The notes under the pieces were generated by a model that worked only from the letters and a program-made list of their open reading frames with translations, ran no database searches and was not told the DNA's origin. 64,000 nucleotides of DNA, taken from an uncultured virus (IMG/VR IMGVR_UViG_3300030102_002633). Its lineage: Duplodnaviria > Heunggongvirae > Uroviricota > Caudoviricetes. Of this stretch, positions 43,403-60,932 are shown in pieces; within the stretch, counting starts at the first letter, position 1; each line of letters begins with the position of its first letter. The stretch is from IMG/VR virus record IMGVR_UViG_3300030102_002633. The stretch is one strand, 5' to 3'. The translations under genes and the position numbers were made by a program.

Positions 43403-43928
43403 AACAGTGGCTAATTAGAAAGATGATTGCATTAATGGGTAACACGTATGTTTGGTTAGATAAACAACTTGTTCATCCTACTGGCCCTGTTCTCGGTTTA
43501 GAGATTGATGATGACTTTGCACAGATGAGCAGGTATGAGTTATGTTGTCACATTGAGGATAAGTTCGGGTTAGAGAGAGATTCTTTTTGGAAGTTGGAGT
43601 CAACACAGAAGATTAGGTTCTGTTGTCAGACTGCTAGGAACATACTTACGCCAAAGAAGAGGAAGAAGAAATGAGTAACTTAAGCAAGTTTGATAGTCTT
43701 CATCATAGTGCGACTATGCAGGGTTCACTAAGCACCGATGATGATTCTTGGTTTAACATACTAAGAATGGGAGGAGCGGTAACGTCAACCTCAAGCGGTA
43801 CATCGGCATTATTCAACAATAAAACGGGAGGGGGAAAAAGACGTGGTAAAAAGAAAAAGAGTCTCAAAAGACAAAGGTATCAAGACGAAACTACCAGACG
43901 GGACAGACGCTACAATCAACGTAAGTAA
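43399..43928 (+). CDS. Two small hypothetical genes (43399-43674, 43671-43928)
   Basis: ATGA coupling; the second has SWFNILR and a basic tail. Confidence 0.6.
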
Positions 43929-44955
43929 GAGGTCTTTCGGACAGGCTTTCCAAGAGTGGGAAAGAAAGGCCAGTGGACTTGCAGGTGATTCAATCGGGAT
44001 GATTAGTCCTGAAGCCAGTAACATGAGTTTACTCGATGTAGTGAAAGAACAAGGTGTAACTGGAAGAATCAAGGGAAAGACTGGAAGTAAGATAAAGGGC
44101 AAAGGTGGAGTTGCTATCTTCAAGGCGTTGAAGACTATCTTCAATAAACCTGATATGTCCAAAGCACAGTTACCTGCTTTGAAAGCATTAGACAAACTAA
44201 TGGATGGAATTCAGGGAACTTCTGTTGACCCTCGTAATATTGTATTCTCTAATCCAGTGGATTGGTCAGAAGACACTGGGAGAGTATTAGATACTGAACC
44301 TGTTTATGGTCATTATAGAACAGATGAATATGAAACTGTTAGAGATTTGAAAGACGAGGATGTTCCCGCAGTTTCATCTGAATGGTATAATGATTCTAAG
44401 AATGCTGCCACACCACCATTTTGGCAAGCACTTTATGGTAAAGGAACTAATGCTCCTTTCAATTCTCCAAGTCTACATATGATAATTAAACAGGCTATCA
44501 AAGATATTGAAGATGCCCCAATAATTATCAACAAGGATAACCCTGTTCCCATTGAGGGTAAGAAGGCTGCAACTACTGCCCTCACAATTTCTGTATTGAG
44601 AGCCATAGTGGAAACAGAGTTGAATAGCGGAACAGAGGGTAAGTCATTTCCTGATAGTAAAGTTAGAAGATTAATTGTAGGACAGGCTCAAGACATAAAG
44701 AATGAGAAAGAGTCAGATGCGGTTGAGAGTCTTAAGAGAATAAATGTTCCAAATGATATTGAGGAATGTTGGTTCAAGTTATCAAGAAGACAAGTTAAGT
44801 TGATGGCGTTTGAACTTGCTAAGAGGAAGGGCATAAAGATGCACTTCAAACAAGCAAGTGGAGATGTTGCGAGAAGCCCATTGGTTTTCGGAGAAAGACC
44901 TGACCCTGATACAGAAAAGAAATCTCTTGATTGGAAAGAGATGTTAGCGAGGTGA
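43843..44955 (+). CDS. Hypothetical protein
   Basis: 370 aa; C-terminal LDWKEML. Confidence 0.7.
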   Translation: MVKRKRVSKDKGIKTKLPDGTDATINVSKRSFGQAFQEWERKASGLAGDSIGMISPEASNMSLLDVVKEQGVTGRIKGKTGSKIKGKGGVAIFKALKTIFNKPDMSKAQLPALKALDKLMDGIQGTSVDPRNIVFSNPVDWSEDTGRVLDTEPVYGHYRTDEYETVRDLKDEDVPAVSSEWYNDSKNAATPPFWQALYGKGTNAPFNSPSLHMIIKQAIKDIEDAPIIINKDNPVPIEGKKAATTALTISVLRAIVETELNSGTEGKSFPDSKVRRLIVGQAQDIKNEKESDAVESLKRINVPNDIEECWFKLSRRQVKLMAFELAKRKGIKMHFKQASGDVARSPLVFGERPDPDTEKKSLDWKEMLAR

Positions 44956-45156: not shown

Positions 45157-45816
45157 TTGACTGTAACAAGAAAGAGATGTCGTCTTTGTATGCACGAAGA
45201 CAGAGAAATCTTTGAGAGGGATTTGGAGAGTATGCACATTCACCCTGATGACTTGGATAGTAGGATGAACTGGCCTAGTGGGACATCTGCCAAACATCAG
45301 AGAAATCATATGGGCGGTTATGCTGATGCTTCTAATCCCAAGTGTGCATTATGTGTTTATGAGAATCGTTCAGAAATTGAACAGGAATTGTATTCGGGAG
45401 ATATGACTCCTGAACTTGCCGCCAAGATAGTTGGTTGTTCAAAGGAACAAGTAGTTAGACACATCAAGAAACATACACAACCATTGGTGCAAAAAGCGGC
45501 GGCACAAATATTGGCGACAAAGGAAGTCAATGAGATTGATACTCTAAGTGGTAACATCACTAACCTTGAGAGAAAGTTAGAGGCATTGTTTGAGATAGAG
45601 GATTTAGACCACAAATCAATTGATTCACTGACAAAGTTAGCAAAGGAAGTGAGAGAGTCGCTAAAGTATCTAATGGAGTTCAAGGGTAAACTCGTTCACA
45701 GAAGGCAAGACACAATCATCGTTCATCAGATGCAGATTATCAAAGAAGTGTTAGCACAGAATCATCCCGAAGTTTGGTTAGATGTTAGAAAGCAAATGGA
45801 GGATAAGTTACAATGA
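45157..45816 (+). CDS. Tandem CxxC...HxxxH Zn/HTH protein with coiled coil; candidate terminase small subunit
   Basis: CRLC...HQRNH and CALC...HIKKH; TTG start after GAGGGG; upstream of the terminase. Confidence 0.5.
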   Translation: MTVTRKRCRLCMHEDREIFERDLESMHIHPDDLDSRMNWPSGTSAKHQRNHMGGYADASNPKCALCVYENRSEIEQELYSGDMTPELAAKIVGCSKEQVVRHIKKHTQPLVQKAAAQILATKEVNEIDTLSGNITNLERKLEALFEIEDLDHKSIDSLTKLAKEVRESLKYLMEFKGKLVHRRQDTIIVHQMQIIKEVLAQNHPEVWLDVRKQMEDKLQ

Positions 45817-45962
45817 CTTGGTTTGATATCATTAAAAGAACTGGTAAATCAAAAGGAACTGGTTTACGAGGTAGAGGATACAAGCCTCCTAAAGATTCAA
45901 CTTCAAGAAGAAAAGAAGATGAGAAGGAGATTTTAGACCCTGAATTGGAGGAGTTACAATGA
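45813..45962 (+). CDS. 49 aa W-tag protein (MTWFDIIK; not in ORF track)
   Basis: ATGA-coupled at both ends. Confidence 0.65.
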   Translation: MTWFDIIKRTGKSKGTGLRGRGYKPPKDSTSRRKEDEKEILDPELEELQ

Positions 45963-46282
45963 GTTGGAAAAATCAGTTGAAAAAAACAATAGCAACTGCT
46001 ACTCGCTCAGCAGAACTTTGGGTTATGAATGAAGAACCTGTTTATCGAGAAGTATTGGCTAAAATAAAATCATTGGTTAAAAGCGGGTATGATAAAGAAG
46101 AGACTATTGAGCAACTAGCAAATTGGCTTCCTAGTATAATGATTCACATGGAAGGTTTCATGGAAGAATTAGAAAGAGAAGATTGGGATGGTTCAGTTGA
46201 TTCTCTTAATGATGTAGATTGGGAAGAAGTGGCTAGTAATTACGATGAGGATATTGATACTATCCTTGAAGACTATGCTTAA
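45959..46282 (+). CDS. W-tag hypothetical protein (MSWKNQLK)
   Basis: Acidic, 107 aa. Confidence 0.7.
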   Translation: MSWKNQLKKTIATATRSAELWVMNEEPVYREVLAKIKSLVKSGYDKEETIEQLANWLPSIMIHMEGFMEELEREDWDGSVDSLNDVDWEEVASNYDEDIDTILEDYA

Positions 46283-46295
46283 GGGAGAGATTAAA

Positions 46296-46586
46296 ATGAG
46301 TTGGAAAAACGTAGTGAAACAACTTGATGAGAAAATAAAGGTAGGTGATATTGTGAAGACCAAGAAGGGAGGACTTCTAGGTAGCAACGTAACGTTGAGA
46401 GAAGGAAAAATCACCAGTATATCAATCGCTATGGAGAAGAATGACAGAGCGGGTGAGTATGATTCTGCTGTTGATGTTCAAGAGTATGACCTTTCTTTGG
46501 GGTATCAAGGAACTATATCATACACATCTGAAACTGAAGGAGATGTATGGGCATACCTTGACCAAATATATGAGGTGGTCAAATGA
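46296..46586 (+). CDS. W-tag hypothetical protein (MSWKNVVK), SH3/KOW-like
   Basis: IKVGDIV motif; GGGAG RBS. Confidence 0.7.
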   Translation: MSWKNVVKQLDEKIKVGDIVKTKKGGLLGSNVTLREGKITSISIAMEKNDRAGEYDSAVDVQEYDLSLGYQGTISYTSETEGDVWAYLDQIYEVVK

Positions 46587-48385
46587 GTTGGTCAAAGGTT
46601 CTAAAGAAAAAGAAGACTCTTCGGCAGAAGGTTCACGAAGCCTCCAAGCGTGGTAACTTCGATGAACTTCTTGAAAACCATAAACCCGCACAATTGCGTA
46701 GAGCGGTAAACACATTAGTAGACGATGGTATGAAGGAAGAAAGGTTTCAGCCTTTGTTGGATAAACTTGGAAAACCGTTTAAGGTGGATGGTAAAAGAAA
46801 CCCTGAATATGAAGACCCTAATACTAAGGAAATAGAAATGTATGAATCTTTCATGAAGGGTAATCACGAAGAATTAGTTGAGTTCTTGAATGATGGAACT
46901 GATGGAAATAAAAGAGTTAAGATTTCACGCTTGATAAAATGGAACTCTGAGAACGGAGATGCACTTCTGAAATACGTCAAGGATAAACCCGAACTCTATG
47001 GCTACATCACTAAGGACATAACACTCACACTACCAAATAACTTTGATAGAGATATCTTGGATGATTACCAATTTGTAATGGAGAGAGATATCAAGGTAAC
47101 TTTACCTGATTTCCTAACAATAGAACAAGGAAAGGCACTTGCAGGTGGTCAGCCATCACAACCAATTGAGAGAACTGCTTTTGCTAGAATCTTCAAAGCC
47201 CCTAAATACAAGGATAAGATTGTAGCAACTTCTGTTAAGTTAGAGGCAAGCACAATTGATGGTGAGTTTGCAGCAGATTATCTGAACATGGTTGTAACAA
47301 ATCTACGTGGTAATACAAGAGAACCATTCATGCCTACATTTTCAGTATCAGAAGCCCCTTCTTCGGGACAAATCAGAGAAGCACAAAAGTTGTTCTTCGG
47401 TGCTAAAACTGGTGGAGGCACAAGTAGGATGTATCCCGCAATGGAGTATATTCTAAGAAATGAGAAGTTGGACTTGGATGTTGGTTTTGTTAGAACTCAA
47501 ACTAAGGAAACGCTACAAGAAGTGGAGTTGGCTAATAAGTTTCAAAGGGCAGAGATAGACGATAAGGAATTGAATAAGTTATACAATAAGTTCGTTAAGA
47601 CCAAGACTGATGAGGATGGTAATGTAACAAATGTTACAGGTTATTCTAAGTTCAAACAGGCGGTTATTGATGCAGGGCTTGAAGACGACTATAACAAGTT
47701 CTTGAAAGAAACCCAAGTCAGACGCTATACTCTACCTGTTGAAGTTAGAGATGCTTTAGTTGCTATGATTGATAATGAAGCAGATGAAAAACAAGTTAGA
47801 TTGGTGAAGTCTAAGTTAGGACATCTATTCTCAAAGGTTGGATTCAAGCGTTCAGTTAGAGAAATGCGTAAGAAGAAGGTAAATTACGGCGACCCTGATA
47901 AAATAAAAGAGGCTCTACTTTCTATGGAAGAGAAAGCAGAAGGAACTGTTTCTATAACAGACAAACTATTTCTTGAGAGAGTTAACTTCCTATTCGATGA
48001 TGTAGACCAAGACCCATTGGGTAATTTCCTTTCAGGAATGGATAGTAGTGGTAAGTTTAGATTGAAGGATATGCAACTTTCTTCTAAGCAGGTTCTACAA
48101 TTCTCAGACTTATTGGTTATGGTTCTACAACTATCGAGAAAAATGTTGAGAGATTCTAAGTTGCAAATGTCCTTGAAGAAATTACTTAGGGAAACAGATG
48201 CTAAGAAAAAGAAAGAAGCAGAAGACGAGTTTAAGACAAAACTATCAGATTCATATTCTAAAATACATAAAGGTGTATTAGACGCAATAAGAAGAAAGAT
48301 GGTGCAAGTGATGGAAGAACCACTACTACATAATAAGTCAGGAGCAATTCAACCATACGATTGGATTAACGAGAACAGGAGTTGA
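46583..48385 (+). CDS. Large W-tag hypothetical protein (MSWSKVLK)
   Basis: 600 aa, charged and helical. Confidence 0.75.
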   Translation: MSWSKVLKKKKTLRQKVHEASKRGNFDELLENHKPAQLRRAVNTLVDDGMKEERFQPLLDKLGKPFKVDGKRNPEYEDPNTKEIEMYESFMKGNHEELVEFLNDGTDGNKRVKISRLIKWNSENGDALLKYVKDKPELYGYITKDITLTLPNNFDRDILDDYQFVMERDIKVTLPDFLTIEQGKALAGGQPSQPIERTAFARIFKAPKYKDKIVATSVKLEASTIDGEFAADYLNMVVTNLRGNTREPFMPTFSVSEAPSSGQIREAQKLFFGAKTGGGTSRMYPAMEYILRNEKLDLDVGFVRTQTKETLQEVELANKFQRAEIDDKELNKLYNKFVKTKTDEDGNVTNVTGYSKFKQAVIDAGLEDDYNKFLKETQVRRYTLPVEVRDALVAMIDNEADEKQVRLVKSKLGHLFSKVGFKRSVREMRKKKVNYGDPDKIKEALLSMEEKAEGTVSITDKLFLERVNFLFDDVDQDPLGNFLSGMDSSGKFRLKDMQLSSKQVLQFSDLLVMVLQLSRKMLRDSKLQMSLKKLLRETDAKKKKEAEDEFKTKLSDSYSKIHKGVLDAIRRKMVQVMEEPLLHNKSGAIQPYDWINENRS

Positions 48386-48389
48386 GCAA

Positions 48390-51095
48390 ATGATATCAGA
48401 TGAAGAACTATACAACGCATTTAGGATTTTGATGCTTGAGCCTGATGAGTTCGATGAGTTTACTGAAAGAATGGTTGCTGAACAGTATAAGGATGAAGAC
48501 CCTAAAGCAATAGCAGATAAGGTTGAATTAGAAACCGATGATAGAGCAGAAGAGTATCTTAGGTCTTTCAAGCCTGAGTTCCTATACAACTTGATTAAAG
48601 ATGATGCAGACTTCATGGAGAATGGAAAGTTATCTTCTAAGTATCAGAAGTCAGGCAAACAATTGGGAGAACTAACTCAATTGTTGATAGAGGACATTTC
48701 TTCCAAACACGAAGAGTTTGAAGAAATACCCGATGCTATCAGAAATAGCATGATTAAGAAATTATTAGAATTAGGTGGAGTATCAGGTAGAGTTCTGACC
48801 ACTGACTTGGAAGAAGCAACAACTGACCCTAGTAGGTCTATTGCGGTTGATGTTAAGAGGTTAGACAAAGTTTTGAGGGCTTTCTTAGATGACACTGGTA
48901 AACAGTTAACGTATAAGAATACAATAGAACAAGAAAAGGACTTGAGCAGAGTTTCGTTGAAGAATAGAAACATAAGGAAGAAAGAAGTAGAACAGATGAA
49001 GTATATTCTTGAGAATCAAAAGCCTTCTGTCAGAGACAGACTTTCACCGTTAATGGTTGTATTGAGACAATTCGATAAGGTAGAAGAGAGAATAATTCAA
49101 TTAGACGCTGACCAAATAATTGGTGAGTTGGATTTGAAGATGTTGAATAGAAGAAACAGAATCTATTCGTTTTGGAAAGAACATCAAGGTAAATATGATG
49201 ATTTCAAAGAAGCGTATAACAATTGTAACACTGCATTCTCTAAGATACTACTACCTTTGATTCAAGAGAACAAGGAAGACAAGGAAATCCAAGAGTTCAG
49301 AAAAATATTGGATGAGTTCTTGAAGTTTGAATCGTCAATAAACAATGATGAATTGAATTATGTTGTTAAGTTCAAACCAAAGGACATGGAAGTTTACTTT
49401 AGGAATCACAAGGGACTTGCTCTATATGAGAAGTTCATGGAAGATAGCGGTTTAATTCGTGGCGATACAAGGGAAGACGAAGATAGGAAAGCGAGAAGTG
49501 AAGGATATTACGATGAGGAAACTGGTGACTTCAAGGAAACTATTACCGTAGAAGGTGTTCAAACTCTTGACTCTGAAGAAGAGGTAATGGAAGCAGAAAG
49601 GAAAAAGGAAATGGAAGAACTTTCACTTTTCGGTGCAAAACTAAAGAGACTTGAAAGTAAGAAAGTAGACCCACTATACTATCACGCATTCACTAAAGAA
49701 ACAGGAGCGTTCAAGGATACTGTTGCTTTCACTCAAGATATTCAAGCAATTCGTGAAGCCATGTTAGGTGCGGGAGCAGTTAGAGAAATGGCTACTGGTA
49801 TTGATATGGATGACGAGATAAATGATTACGTCAACCAATTAGAAAGAACATTAGCAAGAGGAGGAAATGGCCCGTATTATCTACCATTATCTGAATCTGT
49901 TAGTAAGTTTGCAATCGAAGAGAACTGGAATGCTGACCCTCTTAGCCTGAATACAGCAAGAGGAATCAACAATCGTCTTAGACAGATTGGAGACTTCTTG
50001 GATAATCTCAGCCAAATCTTAGATGCAGGGGATGATTTGGATAGAGCGTCAGCACCCAGTTCTGCAATTGCAGATAAACAAGGAGAAGGAGTACCAAGTC
50101 AGAAGATGCCTCATCTTGGAACAAAGAACAGAAAAGACCATCTCGATAAAATCGAAGAGGCAAGAGAAGAGTTTGATGATTTGATAGAAGCAGTGTTAGA
50201 TTACTTCGTAGTTCCTATGAGCGGTTCAAACAAACCATTCGATGACCCTCTACCTTTCGACACAAAGACAAATAAAACCCGTAGAATTTTCAGAGCATTA
50301 GCAACAGGAAAAACCGATACTGCCTTGTTCAAGGTATTAGCATTGGAAGGCAGAGCAGGTTATACAATGGTCAAAGCCGAAGAGTTAGAGAGCCTAACGA
50401 GAATGTTGGAGTTCTTACAAGATATAGAAGGTAGGAAAGACTTGCCTACTTTGGTCAATCAATTGGAAAAGGGAATCAAAACTGTTAATTTCATAATGCT
50501 AAACAAAAGAGGTTCTGCGTTAGCAGAGGAAACTATGGTAGAGTTTGGTCATTATCTACATGAAGTCTTAGAGGCTAATGATATTTCTTGGCCTTCTGAT
50601 ATGAAGTTCCCTGATAACAGTAGAGGAAAAACTCCCGAAGAGTGGAGTAAGATGTATGATGTTGGTAAGGTATATCCATTTGAAGCGATAGAAACTCACA
50701 TCAAGAGAAACATTGGAGGATACTCAGACAGTATGAGAACAATGGTTAGAGGTAGTGATAGGAGAGGAAAAGGTTCTAACACTATCGTTCAAAGATTCAT
50801 CAATGCAATAGATGGAATGAAGATTCTGAGAAGTGAAAAAGAAAACACAATCCTATCCGTTCATGACGAGATTCGTAAGATGATGGGTAAACCCGTATAC
50901 TACAACAATGCTAAGTTGGACAACTATGACCATGTGAATAGTGCAATTGATTTAATGAAATCAAGATTCAAAGTTGATGTGACTGCACATGAAGTAGAGT
51001 CCATTGTAGGTGAATTGAACTCAATGGAAGAATTGAGCAAAAAGCATGGTGTTCCAAAGGAAGGTGTATATTTCTTGAAGGCTAATTTCAGGTGA
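48390..51095 (+). CDS. Large acidic hypothetical protein, possible internal virion protein
   Basis: 901 aa in the head module. Confidence 0.7.
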   Translation: MISDEELYNAFRILMLEPDEFDEFTERMVAEQYKDEDPKAIADKVELETDDRAEEYLRSFKPEFLYNLIKDDADFMENGKLSSKYQKSGKQLGELTQLLIEDISSKHEEFEEIPDAIRNSMIKKLLELGGVSGRVLTTDLEEATTDPSRSIAVDVKRLDKVLRAFLDDTGKQLTYKNTIEQEKDLSRVSLKNRNIRKKEVEQMKYILENQKPSVRDRLSPLMVVLRQFDKVEERIIQLDADQIIGELDLKMLNRRNRIYSFWKEHQGKYDDFKEAYNNCNTAFSKILLPLIQENKEDKEIQEFRKILDEFLKFESSINNDELNYVVKFKPKDMEVYFRNHKGLALYEKFMEDSGLIRGDTREDEDRKARSEGYYDEETGDFKETITVEGVQTLDSEEEVMEAERKKEMEELSLFGAKLKRLESKKVDPLYYHAFTKETGAFKDTVAFTQDIQAIREAMLGAGAVREMATGIDMDDEINDYVNQLERTLARGGNGPYYLPLSESVSKFAIEENWNADPLSLNTARGINNRLRQIGDFLDNLSQILDAGDDLDRASAPSSAIADKQGEGVPSQKMPHLGTKNRKDHLDKIEEAREEFDDLIEAVLDYFVVPMSGSNKPFDDPLPFDTKTNKTRRIFRALATGKTDTALFKVLALEGRAGYTMVKAEELESLTRMLEFLQDIEGRKDLPTLVNQLEKGIKTVNFIMLNKRGSALAEETMVEFGHYLHEVLEANDISWPSDMKFPDNSRGKTPEEWSKMYDVGKVYPFEAIETHIKRNIGGYSDSMRTMVRGSDRRGKGSNTIVQRFINAIDGMKILRSEKENTILSVHDEIRKMMGKPVYYNNAKLDNYDHVNSAIDLMKSRFKVDVTAHEVESIVGELNSMEELSKKHGVPKEGVYFLKANFR

Positions 51096-51601
51096 TAAAA
51101 ATGTTAGAGTTTCAAGAGATGTCTGAAGATGATGCCGTTAGAGTATTCTTAGATGACGGGTATTATGAGTACAAAAAAAGAAGAGAGCGTTATCAAAGGA
51201 TATCTCCTAATTCATCTTGGGCTACTGCACCTGCAAGAATGTTTGTGGGTTTTTTAGAAGATAAACCAGTAGGAGTTATTGGTTTTGCTCCATACAAAGG
51301 AGTTCTTTTGGGAGCAGGTATTCACGTTAGAAGAGGATTTAGAGGTAGAGGATTAGCACAATTACTAGTTCAAAAACTCATAGAGGAGAAAGGAGGCCAA
51401 ACTCTTTTTGCTAATATTGCTAATCCAAGAATTGCTAACACATACAGAAGATATGGGTTCAAAGATATGAATGAAGAAGAGTTACCCGATGACTCAAGAA
51501 ATGCTATTCGGGGATTAGAGTTCGCAGACCAAGTTCAGAAATGGGTTTGGGGAGTTCATCGAGATGTTTGGTTTGACGTGGTGAAAAATGGAATTAGATG
51601 A
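51092..51601 (+). CDS. GNAT acetyltransferase
   Basis: KPVGVIG, IHVRRGFRGRGLAQLL (motif A), YRRYGF. Confidence 0.85.
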   Translation: MIKMLEFQEMSEDDAVRVFLDDGYYEYKKRRERYQRISPNSSWATAPARMFVGFLEDKPVGVIGFAPYKGVLLGAGIHVRRGFRGRGLAQLLVQKLIEEKGGQTLFANIANPRIANTYRRYGFKDMNEEELPDDSRNAIRGLEFADQVQKWVWGVHRDVWFDVVKNGIR

Positions 51602-53021
51602 TTTAGATTTTGTTTCAGCAATGGATATGGAACTATCTAAAACTTCATTTCCATATTTTTTTCAGAACGTTCTTGGAATGATGTTTCCTCCGTATATGCA
51701 AGAATGGTTAGATTCAATGGAAAAAACAGATAGAACCGTTATTGTTTGTAGTCGTGACCACGGAAAATCTGTTTTTATGCACAGTTGGGTAGTATGGAAT
51801 CTTGTGTTTCAAGAACCACCATATCAAATGCTTTACATTTCTTCTAACCAAAAGCAGACTCTTGTTCACATGAGAGAAATTGACAGATACTTCAACCACC
51901 CTGCTCTTAAAAAATACAAGCCCAGTAGGGGTTGGGCTATTGGTAATATTCAGTTAACAAACGGTAACGCTATCTTGGAGCGTTCCGTTGGTTCTCAGAT
52001 TCGTGGTCTTCACCCACAGGAGATTATCATTGATGACCCTTTGAAGGAGTTTAGTCTTGCAGGTATTCAACGAGTTACAGATTGGTTCTTCGGAGATATG
52101 ATACCAACTCTCCATCATACCTCTAAGTTGAGAATGATTGGAACTCCGTTTACCTACACAGATATTTTTGCTCAGTTAGAGGAGAATGAAGCATATTCTG
52201 TTCAGAAGTATCCATGTCTAAATTCTTTGAATGAACCACTTTGGCCTGAACGTTGGGACTATGACGCATTGATGAAAAGAAAAGCAGAGATAGGTTCTCT
52301 CAAGTTTACAAGAGAATATCTCTGTGTCCCTATTTCTACTGGAACTGCTTTATTTAATCCTGAGTTCATAGAGAAGTGCAAGAACAAAGATTACGTTTTG
52401 AAACTTGGACATCGTAAAGAAAAGGGATACAAGTATTATGTTGGAGTTGACCCTGCTATCTCAACCGATGGTGACTACAACGTAATCACGGTTTTAGAGG
52501 TTGATGAAAATAAAAACAAAACCATAGTCCATGTAGACAGGGCTAAGAATGTAGATTTTAGAGAGAACATAGAGAAGATTAGATTGATTGGTAAAATCTT
52601 TGAACCCGAAGAAGTTCTCTATGAAACTAACACTTTCGCAAAAGCATTCACACAGGAACTACGAAACATATCTGACTTGAATGTTAGAGATTTTACAACT
52701 ACAAGAAAAAAGAAACAGGAAATAATTCTGAGTCTTCAAATGAATATAGAAAACGGGAAAATAAATTTTCCATATGGTGATAATGCGAGTAGAAGACTGA
52801 CTAATGCTTTGATAGAAGAACTGTCTATGTTCTCTATTACCACTGCCGGAAAGTTTGAGGGTGTAGGAGCGCATGACGACTTAGTTATGAGTTTAGCATT
52901 AGCAGTGGCTTGTGCTACAAAGACATCAGATGTGTTCATGTTGTTGGATGATATGGGAATATTTGATGAACCTAAGCCAATGAACAGGTCTTTAGGCGGA
53001 ATGATGGGGCTGAACTTTTAG
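51588..53021 (+). CDS. terL: Terminase large subunit
   Basis: SRDHGKS, IRG.HP, IIIDD, IGTP, LWPERW, VGVDPA, HDDLVMSLALA. Confidence 0.95.
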   Translation: MELDDLDFVSAMDMELSKTSFPYFFQNVLGMMFPPYMQEWLDSMEKTDRTVIVCSRDHGKSVFMHSWVVWNLVFQEPPYQMLYISSNQKQTLVHMREIDRYFNHPALKKYKPSRGWAIGNIQLTNGNAILERSVGSQIRGLHPQEIIIDDPLKEFSLAGIQRVTDWFFGDMIPTLHHTSKLRMIGTPFTYTDIFAQLEENEAYSVQKYPCLNSLNEPLWPERWDYDALMKRKAEIGSLKFTREYLCVPISTGTALFNPEFIEKCKNKDYVLKLGHRKEKGYKYYVGVDPAISTDGDYNVITVLEVDENKNKTIVHVDRAKNVDFRENIEKIRLIGKIFEPEEVLYETNTFAKAFTQELRNISDLNVRDFTTTRKKKQEIILSLQMNIENGKINFPYGDNASRRLTNALIEELSMFSITTAGKFEGVGAHDDLVMSLALAVACATKTSDVFMLLDDMGIFDEPKPMNRSLGGMMGLNF

Positions 53022-53033
53022 GGGGGTAGGTGC

Positions 53034-54362
53034 GTGGCGGAGAAAGATAGCGAAATCTTAGAAGAAGTTCTTGAGCAAACAAAGCGAAAAGAGACTTTAG
53101 AAGAAGAAATCGAACAACGCACTAAAGATTTGAAACTCGCTTGGCTATCGAATGTTCCAATAGAAGACCACAGTATTTTGGAAAAGAAATACGCAGAAGA
53201 TTTCAGAATGAGTTTATCTGATGCAAGAAAGGAATTGAAGTATACTTTGACTAAGTATGAGATTGAAGGTTCTGACATTCCTAGAACAGTAAAGCAATTG
53301 AAAAAATACCGAAGGACTCTCAAAGGAGAGGACAAGGTGAAGATTACAAACTCGATTGAAAATCTAATCAAGGCATACTCTGACCATTTGGATAAGAGCA
53401 TGGATGACATTTACTGGATTGCTAAGTACAAACCAGTTCTCAAAGACATGACTTGCTCAGAAGATAATTTAATCAAACTATCATATGTTGACGATGCAAA
53501 AACAAGGCGAGAACTAATTGATACTCTCTGTAAATATTGGGAAGCAAAAATAGAGAAGGAGGATATGCCCTTCAATTCTGATTACTCAAGATTGACAAAG
53601 GAGATGACTAACACAAAGAGACAATTCAAAAGATTGTTGAAGAAGCATATGAAAACCACTTCTCCAAAGGATAAAATCAAACATCATATTCTAAAATCTA
53701 TATGTGAAGAACCCGGAATATCTGCAAGGCAGATACATGAGAGACTACCAAAGAATCTCTTTACAAAAACGACTCCAAACGTAATTGCAAAAATGGCTAA
53801 ACAAGAAAATATCACCACTGTTAACGGTGCTTTCTACAAGTTTAGTGATGAGATAAAGAAAGATATCTATGCTTATACTGCTGCATTCATTGACTCAGAT
53901 GGCTACATTACAATGGATAAGAATTACAATCCAAGAGTCGGTTTAGTTGCAACAGGAGAAAGAGGTAAGGCTTTCATGATGGAGATGCACAAGTCATTAG
54001 GGTGCGGTAGATTACATCTCGACCAAAAATCCCCACAGGATACAAGACCAGTAAACAGGTTGAACTTTTACTCAGGTGATGATGTTGTTGAACTACTTAC
54101 AAAATGTAGGCCACATTTCAGAATGAAAGGTAAGAATGCTGATATTCTGTTAGAGTTAATCAGGATGAAGAAATCACATAAGAAGGCTGATTGGTATAAT
54201 GAAAGGAGAGAAGAACTCTTCAAGTTGATGAAATATGAGAATCATAAAGACCATGTAGGTTATGATTTCACACGATATGATATTGACATTGATACTGTTG
54301 CCAAGTTACATGACAATTGTAAGATGGGTGCAATGGATGTTATTGAAGGGGTGATTGCATGA
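53034..54362 (+). CDS. Helical/wHTH protein fused to a C-terminal LAGLIDADG domain
   Basis: PGISARQI HTH; YTAAFIDSDGYI; LGCGR; PHFRMK. Confidence 0.8.
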   Translation: MAEKDSEILEEVLEQTKRKETLEEEIEQRTKDLKLAWLSNVPIEDHSILEKKYAEDFRMSLSDARKELKYTLTKYEIEGSDIPRTVKQLKKYRRTLKGEDKVKITNSIENLIKAYSDHLDKSMDDIYWIAKYKPVLKDMTCSEDNLIKLSYVDDAKTRRELIDTLCKYWEAKIEKEDMPFNSDYSRLTKEMTNTKRQFKRLLKKHMKTTSPKDKIKHHILKSICEEPGISARQIHERLPKNLFTKTTPNVIAKMAKQENITTVNGAFYKFSDEIKKDIYAYTAAFIDSDGYITMDKNYNPRVGLVATGERGKAFMMEMHKSLGCGRLHLDQKSPQDTRPVNRLNFYSGDDVVELLTKCRPHFRMKGKNADILLELIRMKKSHKKADWYNERREELFKLMKYENHKDHVGYDFTRYDIDIDTVAKLHDNCKMGAMDVIEGVIA

Positions 54363-54619
54363 ATTGGTTTAAAATATTAAAAGCCAAATCAAAGAGGCAA
54401 AAAGCACTCTCTGAATGGACAAAAGAAGATTGGGGATACATATCACCCAAATCAAAAAAGAAAGGGAGATATGCTCCAAAAGCAGTTCGGGATTCTTTGA
54501 CACCTTCTGAAAAAGCATATGAGAATCGTAAGAAAAGAAAAGGAACAAAGCAAGGAAAGCAACACGTTCCAAGAGGTAAATCTGCTAAGAAAAAATACAG
54601 GAGGGTTGAGGGATTATGA
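54359..54619 (+). CDS. Basic W-tag protein (DUF5872 C-half-like)
   Basis: QKALSEWTKEDW...GRYAPK...KKRKG.KQGKQHVP. Confidence 0.7.
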   Translation: MNWFKILKAKSKRQKALSEWTKEDWGYISPKSKKKGRYAPKAVRDSLTPSEKAYENRKKRKGTKQGKQHVPRGKSAKKKYRRVEGL

Positions 54620-54819
54620 GTTGGCAAGACATTTTGAAAAAGAAAAAGAAATCAACAGTCAACCAAGCGGGTAATTATACTAAACCCGGAATGAGAAAGA
54701 AAATATTCCAACGAATCAAAGCCGGAAGTAAAGGTGGTAGAGCAGGTCAATGGTCTGCAAGAAAAGCACAGATGTTAGCGGCTGCATACAAGAAAGCAGG
54801 TGGTGGATATCGTGACTGA
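54616..54819 (+). CDS. Basic W-tag protein (DUF5872 N-half-like)
   Basis: YTKP.MR...IKAGSKGG..GQWSARKAQMLA..YKKAGGGY. Confidence 0.75.
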   Translation: MSWQDILKKKKKSTVNQAGNYTKPGMRKKIFQRIKAGSKGGRAGQWSARKAQMLAAAYKKAGGGYRD

Positions 54820-55120
54820 TTGGTTTGGGATTCTAAAGAAAAAAGGCAAACACCCTGCACTAAAGAGAGCGGGTGTTAGTGGTTTCAGCAAACCAAAGAG
54901 AACCCCTAAACATAAATCAAAATCTCATGTTGTTGTTGTCAGAGATGGTAAGAAGGTCAAGACTATTCGGTTTGGAGAACAAGGTGCTGATACAGTAACC
55001 GAGAAAAACCCAAAGGGAAAGAGAAAAAAGAAACAAGCATCATTCAAGGCTCGCCATGCTAAGAATATTAAGCGGGGGAAAATGTCTGCGGCGTATTGGG
55101 CTAACAAAGTAAAGTGGTAA
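54812..55120 (+). CDS. Basic W-tag protein of a common marine-viral family
   Basis: GTG start (MTDWFGILK); KTIRFG, SFKARH, SAAYWA..W. Confidence 0.7.
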   Translation: MTDWFGILKKKGKHPALKRAGVSGFSKPKRTPKHKSKSHVVVVRDGKKVKTIRFGEQGADTVTEKNPKGKRKKKQASFKARHAKNIKRGKMSAAYWANKVKW

Positions 55121-55122
55121 GT

Positions 55123-56781
55123 ATGGTAGAAGAAAAAAGAAGATTTAGTTTAACGAGTTTGTTTAGGCAAACTACGCCCAAACCCGCAGATAGAACGGTG
55201 TTCAATCCGGGTATTCAAGAGAGAGATAATTCATATCTTTTGACTAGCCCAATCATCTACCACATAGTATCTCAATCAACTATTGTTAGAACTTGTATCA
55301 CTCAGTTGAAACAGGAAATATTCAGAAGAGGATACCATTGGGATTCTAAGTTCGCTCTAAAATGTAGAAGTTGTGGTAAAGAACATGAAAGCACAGTAAA
55401 GGAATGTGTTGATTGTGGAAGCACTGATTTGGTAAAGCCTGATGTTGAGCAATTAAAATATGCTAAAGAGTTCTTAGATGGATATGTAAATTGTTCAGAG
55501 CAACTATTCATTGACGTTCTCAAGGAACTTGAAGATGACTTGAACATCATGGATGACGCATATTTGGTAATGGTGAAGGAATACTATGCTGATAACAATT
55601 CTAAAGTTAGAATGCACAGAATCAAGGAAGTATACAGAGGCGACCCAGTTACTATGCACATTTATGCAAATGACTTGGGAGAAAGAGGCAAAGCCGGATA
55701 TACTTGTTTAAGGCATAGAAAAAGAGTCCACCAAAGCCCAACTGAACTTTGTGAAACTTGTAACTCTGAACTTTATCCCGTTCATTATGTTAACAGGGTA
55801 AACGGTGAAGAACAGTATTTCGTGAAGGGAGAAGTTCTACACTTTAGCAAATACTCACCAAGTAGGTTGTATGGTCTTTCACCAATAATTACTCTATGGA
55901 ATAATGTTACAACACTAATTGCTATGGAGAATTATGTCAACTCATCATACACTAAAGCAAGAATGCCGAAGGGACTTCTTGCGGTGCAAACAAGAAACAT
56001 GGATTCAATGAAATCGTTTTGGCGTGGTGTCAAAGAAAAGATGGAGCAAGACCCACACTTCATACCTGTAATGGGAATAGAATCTGAGGGAGGAAAAGGT
56101 TCTGTTGAGTGGGTCAAGTTCATGGACAGTCTAAAGGAAATGGACTACATACAAGTTAAGGATGATTTGAGAGATAGGATTTCAGCATTCTATGGTGTGA
56201 GTAAAATCTTCATGGCGGATAACTCTGCAAGTGGCGGTTTGAACAATGAGGGTATGCAAGTGTTAGTTACTAACAGAGCGGTAGAAATGGCTCAAACAAT
56301 TTGGAATAACTATGTGTTCCCATTTATGTCAGAAGAGTTTGGAATAACTGATTGGTGTTTGAAACTACCACCATCCGAAGAAGAGGATGAAATTGCAGTT
56401 CTACGTAAAAGAGAGATAGAAGTGAATGTCGCTGCTGCGATTAAGAACTTAGGGTTTGAAGTAGACATGGATGATGAAGGCGGGTTCATTTACACAAAAC
56501 CTGAACCTAAAGAACCAACAGAAGGAGAAGGTGAGGAAGGTAGTGAAGAAGTTGAATTAGACCCATATGCCGGAACTGATATTGATGCCTCTCAAATGGG
56601 ACAAATGCAAGAACAAATGATGATGGGAGGAAATAAGTCTGAGAGCAAACCTCAAGAAAACCCCCCCGCTACGAGGAACAAACCATCTATGGCTACTGGC
56701 CCGGATAAAAGATTTACAGGATTACCAAGAGAAGCCGGAAATGAAAATGTTGACGAAAGAACAGAGAGGCGAGTAGGATGA
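55123..56781 (+). CDS. Portal protein with Zn-ribbon insertions
   Basis: EVLHF...LYGLSPI, PKGLL, MDYIQ...ISAFYGVS; follows terL. Confidence 0.88.
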   Translation: MVEEKRRFSLTSLFRQTTPKPADRTVFNPGIQERDNSYLLTSPIIYHIVSQSTIVRTCITQLKQEIFRRGYHWDSKFALKCRSCGKEHESTVKECVDCGSTDLVKPDVEQLKYAKEFLDGYVNCSEQLFIDVLKELEDDLNIMDDAYLVMVKEYYADNNSKVRMHRIKEVYRGDPVTMHIYANDLGERGKAGYTCLRHRKRVHQSPTELCETCNSELYPVHYVNRVNGEEQYFVKGEVLHFSKYSPSRLYGLSPIITLWNNVTTLIAMENYVNSSYTKARMPKGLLAVQTRNMDSMKSFWRGVKEKMEQDPHFIPVMGIESEGGKGSVEWVKFMDSLKEMDYIQVKDDLRDRISAFYGVSKIFMADNSASGGLNNEGMQVLVTNRAVEMAQTIWNNYVFPFMSEEFGITDWCLKLPPSEEEDEIAVLRKREIEVNVAAAIKNLGFEVDMDDEGGFIYTKPEPKEPTEGEGEEGSEEVELDPYAGTDIDASQMGQMQEQMMMGGNKSESKPQENPPATRNKPSMATGPDKRFTGLPREAGNENVDERTERRVG

Positions 56782-57691
56782 GTTGGAAAGATATATTGAA
56801 AGGAGAAATAGAACACTTTGATGAATTACCAAAGGGTATGCCTGATGCAGTTCGTGAAGAAGTTTATGCTGGAACAGGAGATGGAAAACAACAATTATCC
56901 TTGATTAAATCTATGTTAGATAATCCAAATGCACCTAATTTTGTACCATCGGGAGAAACATTGAAGGATTACAAAGGAAACGAGATTAACAATAAAACAC
57001 ATAAAATAATAAGTTATAATGATGATGACGGCCAAATGTTTTACAGGATTGTTGAAAAGTAGGTGATTAAGATGAGTTGGGAAGATACGATAAAAAAGAA
57101 TGTGTTTGATAAAGACCCTAATGATATGACTGACTTTATGAATGTCAGTCCTAGAATGGAAAGGGAAGCAGAAAAGAGAACACAGGGGAAAGATAAATAC
57201 AAGATAGAGAGAATGTTACTGGATGCTTCTGTTGCTTTAGGTAATGCAAAAGAGTTGTTAACTGATTTAAATAGAGAACATAAAGATGAATTAAACTCTA
57301 CTGAATATATGAGATTAAAGAATAGTATGTCTAAACTCATAAGAAGAAGCGTAAAGGAAATCTCAGTTGTTGAAAAGGAATTGTTTAGGTGATTGAAATG
57401 AGTTGGCAAGACGTACTAAAAAATGAGATGAATGTAGAAACATTGGAAGAAATAGCGAATGAGTTAGATAATGCGGTTAAGATGCACGCATCTCAAGCGA
57501 AAAGGATTAGAGAGATAATTGCTCAATACAAAAAAGGCACTCCAACAAAAATGCCTTCACCACAATACATAACTAATACGCCAAGAGTCCCGACACTTCC
57601 ACAACCAAGAGATTACACTGCGGGAGATAGAGCATTGATGAGGAGAGCAAAAGGAAATCTTGATGAAGAAAAAAGGAGGAAAAATCAATGA
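56778..57691 (+). CDS. Three W-tag small proteins (56778-57062 MSWKDILK; 57072-57392 MSWEDTIK; 57398-57691 MSWQDVLK)
   Basis: Shared N-terminus with unrelated bodies. Confidence 0.7.
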
Positions 57692-57912
57692 GTGAAAAAA
57701 CCGTAAGAGAACTTGAAAGAGAACTAAAGGCAGCAAGAGTTAGAGAAAGAAAAGAGCATACTGATAAGGTAACTGTTAGTAGAGACTATTCTATTGGTGG
57801 TATTGATAGAGATACCACAGTAGAAAAGAAAAATCCTGACTCTGCTGATATTCCTGATGCTATTCTGTTACCTAAGAATAAGAGAAACCGAAGAGAAAAC
57901 ATACCTTTCTGA
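57688..57912 (+). CDS. Hypothetical protein
   Basis: 74 aa, GGAGG RBS. Confidence 0.65.
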   Translation: MSEKTVRELERELKAARVRERKEHTDKVTVSRDYSIGGIDRDTTVEKKNPDSADIPDAILLPKNKRNRRENIPF

Positions 57913-57921
57913 GTTGATTGC

Positions 57922-59730
57922 ATGACATGGACTAGTATTCTCAAGAGAAGCGAAATCCATGCTGATGTTATGTGGGCTTACAATCAAGCACAAAAAAAAG
58001 ACTCGACAAAGTTTCCTATTACAGATTTGCGTGAGGCGCATCGTGCATTAGATGATGCCGCAGAAAAAGATGCAGAGGAAAGGGATAAGTCAGAGGCTAA
58101 GGTTACAAATATTCTGAGTAGAGGTTTCTTTTCTAACTCACGCGATAAGTTAACCCCTGTTGAGTTTGAGAAGGATAAAAGAAAGTTCATCAATAGAATA
58201 AATGGTTTGGAAAGATTGCTAAACAAAAGAAGTAAAGAATCCATGAAACTTCCCGAAGGGCAGACATTGAACATAAGAGATTTAGATGCTCTAAGAGAAG
58301 AAAACTCTCTGTTGGAATTATTATTTGAAGGAGAGAAAAAAGTTCTAGTTAAACTAAAAATAGGTTTAGGTGAAAGAAAAGATGCTGCGATTGATTTCGC
58401 AGAAAAACTCTCTGATGCAATGAAATCATGGGATAGGTATGGAGATAATACTCGTAGTAGAAATCTTGTTGACGACCTAAGACCACGACTAGCATCAGGA
58501 GCAAAGAACCTACAAGCATATTTGTTAGAAGGAAAAGGTAGAATTAGAACTGAGGTTTCTTCCTTATTCCATGAAAAGAATGCCGAGTTTGATGACGAAA
58601 GTAAAACTTGGAGTCCTCTTGTAATATACCCAAAAGGAAACACTTCCTTAGAATTACTTGAACAAATATACTCTTATCTTAGAATACCAATAAAAATATC
58701 AGGAGAAGATGAAGCCGGAGAAAAGGCAATACGAAGTTATTTTTCATTAGATGTAGATGAGTTTGTAGAAGAAATTCACGACATGATAGGTAGTGATGAC
58801 CCAAAGATTCATGCTAAACTGTTTTTCAATAAGGATGATGTCTTGAGGAAGATATACAGAATAGTTCCTGAAATCATACAGATTGCAGAAGAAAAAATGG
58901 ATGACAAAGAAAAAGCAGAGTTGTTGACTAAACACTTTGACGTGTTAGAATATTTGATTAGGATTAATTCTTTGACTGGTGATTACAGTAGACTCAAAGA
59001 AAACAGGTTGGACAAAGTAAAACGATTTGCTCATATGCGAAAGGGCAAGAGAAATCTAAGTATGAACAGAAACTTCCCAATGTTAGAAGATGCCTATGAG
59101 GAATATGAGGCAAACCCAAGTGAATATCATACAAGTGGCAGAAAGAAACAACGCACATCTCCTAAACTTGAGAATAAAAGAATGGTTTTGAGAAACCCAT
59201 CTCTACCATCACAGTATCAAGGGCCACGAACTAAGGAGGAAATAGAGAGAGATGTCAGTAACTTTACCACATTTTCAAGAAAAATACAGGAGATAAAACC
59301 TAAACTAACTTCAGGTGAATTAGAACGTAAGACTTTAGTTGGTATGAAAAGAACATTAGATTCATTCAAGGCAAAGATGGAGAAGCATGATTTACTTTTA
59401 GAAGACACAATTGATGTTATGGGTATAGAGGGCATTGAGAATGAAGATGACTTGGATGAAGCCATAAACAAATACAAGGAAATGCTACAACGAATAAAAT
59501 CGGAAAGAACAGATGATGGTAAAATCATCGGCGAAGATGGAGAAGAATATGACGCTGATGAATTGATTGAAGAATATGAAGATTATTTGGAATACCTAAA
59601 GGTTCTAAGTGCAATACCACGTTTGAAAGAAGTAATTCCTCGATTAGAAACTATTTTACAAAACGTAAAACTTGAGGAACAATCATTAGACGAACCCTCA
59701 TCTGATGATGCGGAGGTGGAGTCTGCATGA
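57922..59730 (+). CDS. Large W-tag hypothetical protein (MTWTSILK)
   Basis: 602 aa, charged and helical. Confidence 0.75.
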   Translation: MTWTSILKRSEIHADVMWAYNQAQKKDSTKFPITDLREAHRALDDAAEKDAEERDKSEAKVTNILSRGFFSNSRDKLTPVEFEKDKRKFINRINGLERLLNKRSKESMKLPEGQTLNIRDLDALREENSLLELLFEGEKKVLVKLKIGLGERKDAAIDFAEKLSDAMKSWDRYGDNTRSRNLVDDLRPRLASGAKNLQAYLLEGKGRIRTEVSSLFHEKNAEFDDESKTWSPLVIYPKGNTSLELLEQIYSYLRIPIKISGEDEAGEKAIRSYFSLDVDEFVEEIHDMIGSDDPKIHAKLFFNKDDVLRKIYRIVPEIIQIAEEKMDDKEKAELLTKHFDVLEYLIRINSLTGDYSRLKENRLDKVKRFAHMRKGKRNLSMNRNFPMLEDAYEEYEANPSEYHTSGRKKQRTSPKLENKRMVLRNPSLPSQYQGPRTKEEIERDVSNFTTFSRKIQEIKPKLTSGELERKTLVGMKRTLDSFKAKMEKHDLLLEDTIDVMGIEGIENEDDLDEAINKYKEMLQRIKSERTDDGKIIGEDGEEYDADELIEEYEDYLEYLKVLSAIPRLKEVIPRLETILQNVKLEEQSLDEPSSDDAEVESA

Positions 59731-60409
59731 GTTGGCGAGAGGTACTAAAAGAAGAAAGTGCTAGGGATTATGTTCTAAATAGGGCTAGTTCAGGAAAATC
59801 AATGGGTGATGCTCTTAGAGAGTTTGCACAGAAATTTCCTGATAAAACCCCACCACCGGAGATAGTAGAGCAAAGTGTCAAGAATATGGAAAAGATAGAA
59901 CAAATCCTTCAAAATTTAGATGCTCAAAGAAAAAGAATGGAAGAAGCAAAAATTCGACATGAACAAAGAGGAAAAGAGTTGGCGGCTAGAGCAAATATGA
60001 GTGAAGATGAAAGATTCAAGAATTTGTTTGGTAGAACCAAGTCTGAGTTAATGGGGGGAAGTCAATGAGTTGGCAAGATGTGCTAAAAGATGAAGGATTC
60101 TACTTCTCTCCCGTCTTCATTGAGAAACTTGATGGTAAGCAGAAAAAGAAGTTGAAGAAACTTATACAGAAGGCTCAACCAACAAACATGATGGGTCAGG
60201 ATATGACTCAACTTTCAGATATAATCGAAGAACTGAAAGACATAGATTTAGTAAAGTCTGATAAAAAACTAAGTAAAACCGTAGAAGGTTTTGATGAGAA
60301 AAACTTGGAGATTCTCGCCTCTGCCTCTGAGTTGAGAAAAGACTACGAAACACTATTCACACAACTAAGAAAAATGGTTTATCCACCATCAAAGAAAGGT
60401 AAGCAGTGA
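59727..60409 (+). CDS. Two W-tag proteins (59727-60068 MSWREVLK; 60065-60409 MSWQDVLK)
   Basis: ATGA-coupled. Confidence 0.7.
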
Positions 60410-60486
60410 TACAATGAATTGGAAAAATGAACTAAGAGTGCGGATTAAAGAAAGTTTATCTAAAATGTATGAGGAGGAAGCAAGCA

Positions 60487-60932
60487 ATGAGTGACGAGAT
60501 GTTGATGTTGATGAAAGAATTGGTGGACAAAGTAAAAGCCTTAGAGCAAGCAGTTTACCACAAGGACAACCTATTGATGAAATCAGGGTTTGTTGTTTAC
60601 GATTCACCTACACCTACAATGAACAGTAAAGATGTTGTAGGTAGTAGTACAATAAAGAAGAGTATGGATTGGGAAGACATACATGAATTGGTCAAACAAA
60701 TGGAGTGAATGATATGCCGGAGAGAGTAACAAAGGAAGAGAAAGTAGTGGAGTTGGCTATTGCCAAAGCAAAAGAAGTTCTACAAGAAGCAAAACATCTT
60801 GGACAGTTAGAGTTGGATGAGCCTCTTACTGGTGAAGAAGTCAAAGTAAAAAGACCAAAGAAGAATCCTTCGGAAGAACCTTTACCAAAAACAAGTAATG
60901 TTGAAGGAAAAGAAGATAAGTTAAATGACTGA
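60487..60932 (+). CDS. Two small hypothetical genes (60487-60708, 60705-60932)
   Basis: RBS and coupling; the first ends KSMDWEDIHELVK. Confidence 0.6.

Follow-up and report, generated by a model that had tools for sequence, protein, structure and literature searches.

Which task could unite a set of viral proteins that begin with the same eight residues and are otherwise unrelated? The question is raised by a stretch of 64,000 nucleotides from the uncultured tailed virus IMGVR_UViG_3300030102_002633 (hereafter, the window), where 14 genes among and near the head genes start with a peptide of the form M-[STN]-W-x-x-[IVT]-[LIV]-K, here denoted the tag. All 14 N-termini, which a preliminary description of this DNA had picked out and regarded as a candidate capsid-targeting or cargo-loading signal, are present on the plus strand between 45.8 and 60.5 kb. 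The tag is carried by more than a hundred protein families in related viruses, and its core recurs near the C-terminus of the prohead protease-scaffold protein. The best-supported reading of the genomic data, in which confidence is evenly balanced, is that the tag is a capsid-targeting peptide that mimics the scaffold tail and may be clipped after Lys8.

A shared N-terminus in the head-gene operon

Twelve of the 14 tagged starts are the first ATG of their open reading frame (ORF). The exceptions are 46296, an ATG within an ORF that begins at 46245, and 54812, a GTG that overlaps the upstream stop, so that residue 1 of this protein is read as methionine only as the initiator. The strict pattern W..[ILVMT][ILVM][KR], placed right after M-x or M-x-x, also fits 12 of the 14, the deviants at position 6 being MSWKNQLK (45959) and MNWKNELR (60414). 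At the nucleotide level, the pattern ATGNNNTGGNNNNNNRTNYTNAAR has eight matches in the window, all on the plus strand between 46.5 and 60.1 kb, compared with a mean of 0.08 in shuffled sequence, and none of 100 shuffles reaches eight. A six-frame peptide scan yields 28 matches, 12 of which are the tagged gene starts; seven matches on the minus strand (three of these span stop codons) and scattered others are internal. The replication module (4.7–35.4 kb) had been described as free of such N-termini, and indeed no gene start there carries the tag, with a single internal match (24104–24607) in a position-weight scan.

The tag in related genomes

IMG/VR contains 372 confirmed relatives of the window portal, on contigs that reach 92–103 kb. 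When the ORFs of at least 25 amino acids in the 80 best portal loci are compared, the tag is found at the start of 351 of the 3401 plus strand ORFs and of none of the 4221 minus strand ORFs. Five whole relatives contain 42 strict DNA matches, 41 of them on the head-gene strand, and a reversed-pattern control gives none. A weight matrix derived from the tags detects 51 sites in three whole relatives, compared with 3.45 in shuffled proteins; all but one of these sites are in the late operon, the exception being on the strand of the replication module, and the tail module, downstream of the capsid gene, has none. The restriction to the head module, for which the preliminary description had proposed a motif scan of N-termini across related genomes, takes the form of near-complete confinement to the late operon on the head-gene strand. 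In a second lineage, with a protease only ~45% identical, strict tag starts number 12 and 8, again confined to one strand and to the region upstream of the terminase, and four of the five further pattern-bearing contigs examined encode a portal 68–73% identical to that of the window.

A codon-bound form of the DNA pattern was also sought in 185,579 prokaryotic genomes (596 Gb), which contain 36 single matches in scattered taxa, with ~26 estimated to occur by chance; no Poseidoniales record is among the 36, the codon-bound DNA scan being only a weak test. The viral collection, although much smaller than the prokaryotic set, contains at least 135 stretches with this pattern. No shared N-terminus is seen among 16 head-region proteins of the halovirus HVTV-1, and P0041, used as a query against viral contigs, retrieves no relative. 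Partial evidence bears on a possible restriction of the tag to archaeal viruses: prokaryotic genomes are at about the chance level, and HVTV-1 is without the tag.

After dereplication (n = 275), the consensus of the tag is M-S-W-[FQEK]-D-I-L-K, with no conservation after Lys8. Codons 4–8 vary synonymously (ATA, ATT and ATC for isoleucine, six leucine codons, AAA and AAG for lysine), so selection acts on the peptide.

Likeness to the tail of the protease-scaffold protein

In the relatives, the prohead protease is a fusion protein of ~400 amino acids, in which the S78 domain is followed by an acidic low-complexity stretch and a helical C-terminal half. About eight residues before its end, the tail of this fusion reads ...E-M-S-W-x-D-I-H-x-L.... 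The tail motif is present in 68 loci among 75 protease matches, and most of the others seem to be shortened by the locus end; in 30 of 30 aligned sequences (53–92% identity), W396 and H400 are invariant. An AlphaFold2 (AF2) model of the fusion is poor overall (mean predicted local distance difference test, pLDDT, of 47) and includes two long helices (pLDDT 75–84) and a short helix over the tail motif. The second protein with a tail of this kind is a 79-amino acid core protein, encoded two genes upstream of the ligase, the family of which has 76 matches among the ORFs of the 80 loci, with the motif in every C-terminus listed.

The part of the tag common to both tails is M-[ST]-W-x-[DE]-[IV]. 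The core M[STDN]W.[DE][IVL] occurs 6–9 times per genome, compared with an expectation of 0.05–0.09, and is found only at tagged starts and in the two tails; one match that was called internal results from the choice of an upstream ATG by the gene caller. Of the 150 best protease relatives retrieved by a profile search among 1.84 billion representatives, 20 have the strict tail form, and some of these 20 match over the protease domain only. Given this presence in distant relatives, the tail looks older than the lineage of the window. Most simply, the N-terminal tags would be copies of the scaffold tail. A complex prediction for the capsid protein (50-row alignment) with residues 1–40 of the 114-amino acid tagged family, run without controls, gives a score of 0.00 and is evidence neither way.

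Copies inside proteins and at their C-termini

Copies of the motif away from N-termini, also noticed in the preliminary description, are present inside a protein at 43746–43766 and at the C-terminal ends of the products of 43999–44955, 51101–51601 (a GNAT acetyltransferase) and 60469–60708. The W-motif at the end of the GNAT is kept in all three distinct full-length orthologue tails seen, and C-terminal copies also occur on a 420-amino acid and a 385-amino acid protein of relatives. The C-terminal tags on the GNAT, the 318-amino acid protein encoded at 43999–44955 and the proteins of relatives imply that the motif works from either end, which fits a docking peptide and neither a translation signal nor a pure cleavage signal.

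The claim of further copies at about 42641 and 42680 stands, with one caveat. These two are present, but their repeats at 42761 and 42800 stem from an assembly artefact, and only one set is real. A gap of 10 Ns (42696–42705) lies between two pairs of exact 55-nucleotide repeats (42244–42298 = 42706–42760 and 42641–42695 = 42761–42815). This arrangement looks like an assembly bubble written in line, i.e. a strain variant with or without a 342-bp insert, of which the relative G001 has the short form; the 393-amino acid ORF at 42221–43402 is therefore partly artificial. Another string of this type, the conserved WKKTVK at residues 43–50 of the 862-amino acid ligase-core protein (60960–63548), is probably part of a folded helix.

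Bodies of the tagged proteins

Behind the tag, the proteins are unrelated, as had been claimed: a BLAST comparison of the bodies assigns the 351 carriers to 118 families, 72 of which are singletons and 12 have at least five members. Only 2 of 114 representatives reach the Pfam cut-off (DUF5754 and PAP2). Of the bodies, 61 are acidic and 41 basic, a membrane-like segment (19-residue Kyte-Doolittle window of at least 1.6) is detected in only 1 of the 118, and the putative cargo looks soluble. The tag itself contains three hydrophobic residues and is followed by charged ones, which is not the make-up of a secretion signal or a membrane anchor. The two largest carriers of the window remain without relatives, the 600-amino acid protein (46583–48385) in Pfam, PHROG and PDB and with no usable match in the ESM Atlas, and the 602-amino acid protein (57922–59730) in Pfam and PHROG, with nothing significant in a PDB sequence search.

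The boundary between tag and body can be gleaned from several comparisons. The PHROG matches of two window carriers begin at residue 8–9, and a 110-amino acid tagged protein of the relative G004, with an N-terminal region like that of the window gene at 54812, matches phrog_7595 from residue 10. Phage homologues that lack the tag and start directly with the body are found in Pelagibacter phage HTVC115P and, for the G004 protein, in Celeribacter phage P12053L. The three small, very basic tagged proteins encoded at 54359–55120 have close homologues in pelagiphages, roseophages and cyanophages, with up to ~80% identity over the body, an indication that archaeal viruses and bacterial viruses of the sea have exchanged genes.

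In the 114-amino acid family, the tag is fixed and the next 10–40 residues vary in length and sequence. The AF2 model of this protein (pLDDT 79) consists of a tag helix at residues 3–9 (pLDDT 49), a low-confidence linker and a confident helical bundle, for which a Foldseek search against PDB finds nothing at E ≤ 0.001. The second lineage has this body as the C-terminal domain of a protein of 830–1062 amino acids encoded between the portal and the ligase (L272:3898–6387; L276, L280 and L281), and the 830-amino acid version has no tag at the junction with this domain; this is an instance of fusion or fission of a cargo body. The central claim of the preliminary description, that of a modular, portable peptide confined to the head-gene operon, is thus supported, if indirectly, by the 118 families, the untagged phage homologues, the flexible linker and the core in the scaffold tail.

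What the tag may do

In the proposed mechanism, the element M-[STN]-W-x-[DEN]-[IVT]-[LIV]-K would be a portable terminal address peptide that copies the C-terminal tail of the protease-scaffold (...M-S-W-x-D-I-H-x-L...). It would dock its carriers at the site of the scaffold tail in the assembling procapsid, most likely on the inner face of the HK97-type capsid protein or on the scaffold core. The head would in this way take up small soluble proteins from a large, fast-changing set, along with a few large proteins and some enzymes, among them the GNAT. In a weaker part of the proposal, suggested by the near-invariant Lys8 and the near-absence of Pro at position 9, the S78 prohead protease would remove an N-terminal tag after Lys8, as gp21 of phage T4 does with the capsid targeting sequence (CTS). 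The first three codons of the tag (ATGAGTTGG) would serve as a joint for the gain or loss of whole tagged genes between strains. The sequences show the motif, its distribution and modularity, its likeness to the scaffold tail and the cassette indels; from these we infer docking, encapsidation, cleavage and any host delivery by the tag, and delivery of the tagged proteins into the host is speculative.

The docking partner might be a different hub, such as the portal, the terminase or a host factor, e.g. a chaperone, which the scaffold would also use for folding or assembly; the carriers would then remain in the cytoplasm, e.g. for host takeover, and would not be packaged. The behavior of the motif as a short, position-independent linear motif on flexible linkers agrees with this possibility, as do the location of many carriers at the operon start, upstream of the terminase, the resemblance of these diverse ORFans to host-takeover genes, and the thermosome that some magroviruses encode according to part of the published description (PMC5434244). 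What makes it unlikely is that the genes of the carriers lie among those for the terminase, portal and protease and are coupled to them in translation, and that the DNA pattern is at about the chance level in the prokaryotic genomes (in the weak, codon-bound test). Also, in known phages, the C-terminal tail of the scaffold or protease is the end that keeps it in the procapsid.

A purely proteolytic role, in which the tag is mainly a prohead-protease cleavage signal or a timed degron for late activation or destruction, with no part in encapsidation, is decidedly unlikely, even though the composition of the tag has features of a cleavage site. Position 8 is near invariant, with Lys in 266 tags and Arg in 7 (the search pattern allowed both), Pro at position 9 is found in 1 of 300 cases compared with 12.6 expected, whereas position 10 has Pro in 20, and conservation stops abruptly at Lys8. 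These features of positions 8 and 9 also count as weak hints of a cut after Lys8 in the capsid-targeting reading. Against a purely proteolytic role, the C-terminal copies are located 3–8 residues from the end, where cutting would be pointless, and the tails of the scaffold and the 79-amino acid protein have the W-x-D-I half of the tag and lack L-K. Furthermore, prohead proteases are generally active inside the procapsid, so that substrates must enter first, and the ILK-type strings of the protease itself look like features of its fold. Among these strings, ...LLKAE...ILKSD at the start of the protease had been offered as evidence of the tag, a weak argument: F-x-I-L-K-S-D lies in the strand with which the conserved part of the protease domain begins. 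The invariant, tag-like FDILK at the end of that domain, where it meets the scaffold, is likewise rejected as evidence of an autocleavage site of the tag type, the string being present in 75 of the 150 best distant relatives.

At the level of DNA, the tagged genes show a distinctive start. The overlapping ATGA is present in 251 of 281 tagged starts, which overlap the stops of HNH, portal and neighboring genes, and a Shine-Dalgarno-like site precedes 224 of the 281; the tagged genes are likely to be co-expressed with the head genes. The codon of Ser2 is AGT in 165 of 165 tagged genes, whereas the ATGA and AGT bias of untagged genes is milder (AGT 43, AGC 8, TCN 17). In contigs from two metatranscriptome runs, both of one study, position 56776 is joined to 57071 and exactly the 94-amino acid tagged gene is missing, and a contig of run X4 joins 59726 to 60065, with exactly the 113-amino acid tagged gene missing, a gene that is also absent from G001. 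Ten letters fit both sides of each joint (9–10 shared nucleotides), and the run shared in the window is ATGAGTTGG(C). Such joints imply that strains are distinguished by whole tagged genes, which are exchanged from start to start. These contigs come from mixed communities and were aligned at 90% likeness, so they attest that the forms exist and are silent on their frequency and on their status as transcripts; assembled metatranscriptome contigs cover 23, 10 and 14 of 30 bins, which is silent on transcription, its level and its timing, uncovered parts being uninformative.

That the element acts mainly in DNA or RNA, as a translation-start context or a recombination joint that resembles a cassette boundary for gene swaps, with the peptide as a by-product, is very improbable despite the almost fixed ATGAGTTGG, the start-to-start joints and the 72 singletons, because codons 4–8 keep their amino acids despite synonymous variation, the peptide core also appears at C-termini and inside proteins without the start context, nine nucleotides are few for a dedicated recombination site, and the ATGA/AGT bias is common to untagged genes.

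Several observations weigh against capsid targeting by scaffold mimicry. Residue 2 of the tag does not covary with the variant of the scaffold tail (MDW or MSW). The scaffold tail has the M-S-W-x-D-I of the tag without L-K, so that tag and tail need not bind the same site. The N-terminus of the capsid protein, M-S-G-Y-I-K-T-M-K, is a weak match, and its Lys is lost in some clades. The family-wide FDILK looks like a feature of the fold, not a copy of the tag, and is not evidence. Since a cut after Lys would leave C-terminal copies in place, cleavage cannot apply to all carriers. The fixed AGT and the common ATGA imply a nucleotide-level constraint on the first three codons. The tagged genes comprise ~10–15% of all genes (about one in seven to ten), and two of them encode proteins of about 600 amino acids, far above the handful of T4. 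Finally, many tagged genes precede the terminase at the operon start, a location in which early genes for host takeover are often found in phages.

Capsid targeting by scaffold mimicry can be extended to a programmable delivery system of magroviruses, in which the scaffold-mimic tag loads over 100 interchangeable ORFan effectors and some enzymes, the tag is trimmed by the protease, the cargo accompanies the DNA into the archaeal host and blunts the defenses of this host, and the first codons of the tag are the splice points of cassettes. Taken as a whole, this scenario is doubtful.

Comparison with known packaging signals

The closest parallel is provided by phage T4, where, as set out in parts of two papers, the internal proteins are a diverse set that have only the CTS in common, and the CTS is enough to bring foreign proteins into the core of the prohead, the protease of which removes it (PMC3012670, PMC7411985). 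As with the CTS of IPI–III and Alt and the polymorphic internal-protein loci of T-even phages, the tag is a short N-terminal peptide on unrelated, fast-evolving proteins encoded near head genes, and its carriers are both interleaved with terminase, portal and protease genes and hypervariable, as judged from the singletons and the cassette indels. The differences are that the virus of the window is archaeal, that the tag is found on over 100 families and so large a share of the genes, and that it also occurs at C-termini and resembles the scaffold's own tail, its loading and cleavage being putative here. The S78 protease of the window and gp21 of T4 presumably belong to different families.

In phage P1, 30 N-terminal residues of DarB are sufficient for packaging and direct cargo and a reporter into the capsid for delivery to the host, according to the part of the report concerned (PMC9024508). 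The DarB signal is one of 30 residues on a single protein with stepwise loading, whereas the tag comprises 8 residues on many proteins. A 2017 study in eLife reportedly found that the scaffolding protein of phage 80alpha and CpmB of SaPI1 share a C-terminal capsid-binding site. Here, too, second small proteins (the 79-amino acid protein and the tagged proteins) have the C-terminal motif of the scaffold, and the motif is conserved at the extreme C-terminus of a scaffold that is helical in a poor model (pLDDT 47). The title of the eLife study is 'Competing scaffolding proteins determine capsid size' (PMC5644958). CpmB is a satellite hijacker, whereas the carriers here are the virus's own, are mostly N-terminally tagged and belong to many families, and binding by their motif is putative.

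The C-terminal tail of gp4, the maturation protease of HK97, is said to be an encapsidation signal (Duda, Oh and Hendrix, 2013). In both cases the protease would be held via its C-terminal end, here in the form of a protease-scaffold fusion with a strongly conserved C-terminal motif; the HK97 scaffold is the delta-domain of the capsid protein, and the one here is fused to the protease. Encapsulin cargo is loaded through a short terminal peptide that attaches to the inside of an HK97-fold shell and can be transferred to foreign proteins. Encapsulins are compartments of cells that lack a portal, DNA and a protease, and their motif is different and usually C-terminal, so the analogy is one of mechanism, not of membership. 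No published description of the tag is found in the titles, abstracts and some main texts of the magrovirus literature.

Gene content of the window

Base composition and ORFs divide the window into three gene blocks: the plus strand at 1–4 kb, the minus strand at 4.7–35.4 kb, and the plus strand from 37.5 kb to the window end. The minus strand block, the replication module, encodes a split family-B DNA polymerase, an RFC-like AAA protein, an ATP-dependent DNA ligase, an ERCC4 nuclease, a TFIIB zinc ribbon protein, a ThiF protein and a ribonucleotide reductase; the ThiF/E1-like protein (25919–26509) adjoins the TFIIB-zinc-ribbon protein (26509–27447). The late plus strand block encodes the large terminase, the portal, the GNAT, a second protein with a ligase core and the S78 prohead protease (Table 1), the nearest cultured relatives of which are 102-kb haloarchaeal siphoviruses. 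The gene set agrees with the description of magroviruses of Marine Group II archaea, as given in part of the original report (PMC5434244), and on this basis the window is from a magrovirus-like tailed archaeal virus.

The ligase core of the protein encoded at 60960–63548 (E = 3e-16 to archaeal ligases) is additional to the ligase of the replication module (20713–22269), and its position directly upstream of the protease is kept in relatives, which prompts the question whether this ligase is virion-associated. The gene at 53208–54362, located between the terminase and portal genes, encodes a 384-amino acid protein with an HNH-endonuclease-like C-terminal part (phrog_5046), and the halovirus HVTV-1 likewise has HNH genes that flank the terminase. 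The 26-codon ORF at 60414–60494 overlaps, in another frame, the start of the gene for the 79-amino acid protein (60469–60708). The IMG/VR record behind locus L159 (G010, 184,733 bp) contains two portal genes, each 73% identical to that of the window and ~91 kb apart, and this 'complete' 185-kb record looks like two related genomes joined.

Table 1. Tagged genes, genes with copies of the tag and landmark genes in the late block of the window (PSSM, score with the position-specific scoring matrix; aa, amino acids).
Coordinates	Strand	Product	Tag or motif	Remarks
42221..43402	+	ORF with internal copies	SWFDVLHK, SWLDILK	copies doubled around the N gap
43671..43928	+	85-aa protein	internal DDDSWFNILR (43746-43766)	PSSM 18.6; identical in relative G001
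43999..44955	+	318-aa protein	C-terminal tag-like SLDWKEMLAR	
45813..45962	+	49-aa tagged protein	MTWFDIIK	basic, disordered-looking body; PSSM 20.7; start overlaps upstream stop (ATGA)
45959..46282	+	107-aa tagged protein	MSWKNQLK	deviant at position 6; PSSM 12.6
46296..46586	+	tagged protein, 96 aa from internal ATG	MSWKNVVK	Shine-Dalgarno-like gggagag upstream
46583..48385	+	600-aa tagged protein	MSWSKVLK	family of 23 members in 23 loci
51101..51601	+	GNAT acetyltransferase	C-terminal tag-like VWFDVVKNGIR (motif 51569-51586)	
51588..53021	+	large terminase		untagged landmark
54359..54619	+	86-aa tagged protein	MNWFKILK	body is phrog_14910, match from residue 9
54616..54819	+	67-aa tagged protein	MSWQDILK	body is phrog_17747, match from residue 8; Pelagibacter phage homologue without tag
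54812..55120	+	102-aa tagged protein	(M)TDWFGILK	GTG start
55123..56781	+	portal protein		untagged landmark
56778..57062	+	94-aa tagged protein	MSWKDILK	whole-gene cassette
57072..57392	+	106-aa tagged protein	MSWEDTIK	largest tagged family, 50 members in 31 loci
57398..57691	+	97-aa tagged protein	MSWQDVLK	
57922..59730	+	602-aa tagged protein	MTWTSILK	charged body
59727..60068	+	113-aa tagged protein	MSWREVLK	whole-gene cassette
60065..60409	+	114-aa tagged protein	MSWQDVLK	38 members in 38 loci
60414..60494	+	26-codon ORF, doubtful gene	MNWKNELR	deviant tag; family of 26-29 aa in 7 ORFs of relatives
60469..60708	+	79-aa core protein	scaffold-type C-terminal motif at 60664-60705 (MDWEDIHELVKQME)	
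60960..63548	+	862-aa protein, ATP-dependent DNA ligase core at residues ~190-541		directly upstream of protease
63594..64000	+	S78-type prohead protease		matches Peptidase_S78 and S78_2; interrupted by window end

Implications for magroviruses

Uncultured ocean archaea (Poseidoniales) are the hosts of the abundant magroviruses, for most genes of which no function is known. If the tag is indeed a capsid-targeting peptide, it would place the products of roughly a tenth of magrovirus genes inside the head, and would define a pool of candidate injected counter-defense proteins in an archaeal system for which none is known. It would also represent a minimal handle of eight residues that is testable in heterologous capsid assembly without culture of the host, and would indicate that a scaffold can have its own tail copied to give rise to capsid-targeting peptides. 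The principle of the T4 CTS would, if this role is confirmed, extend to the archaeal branch of tailed viruses.

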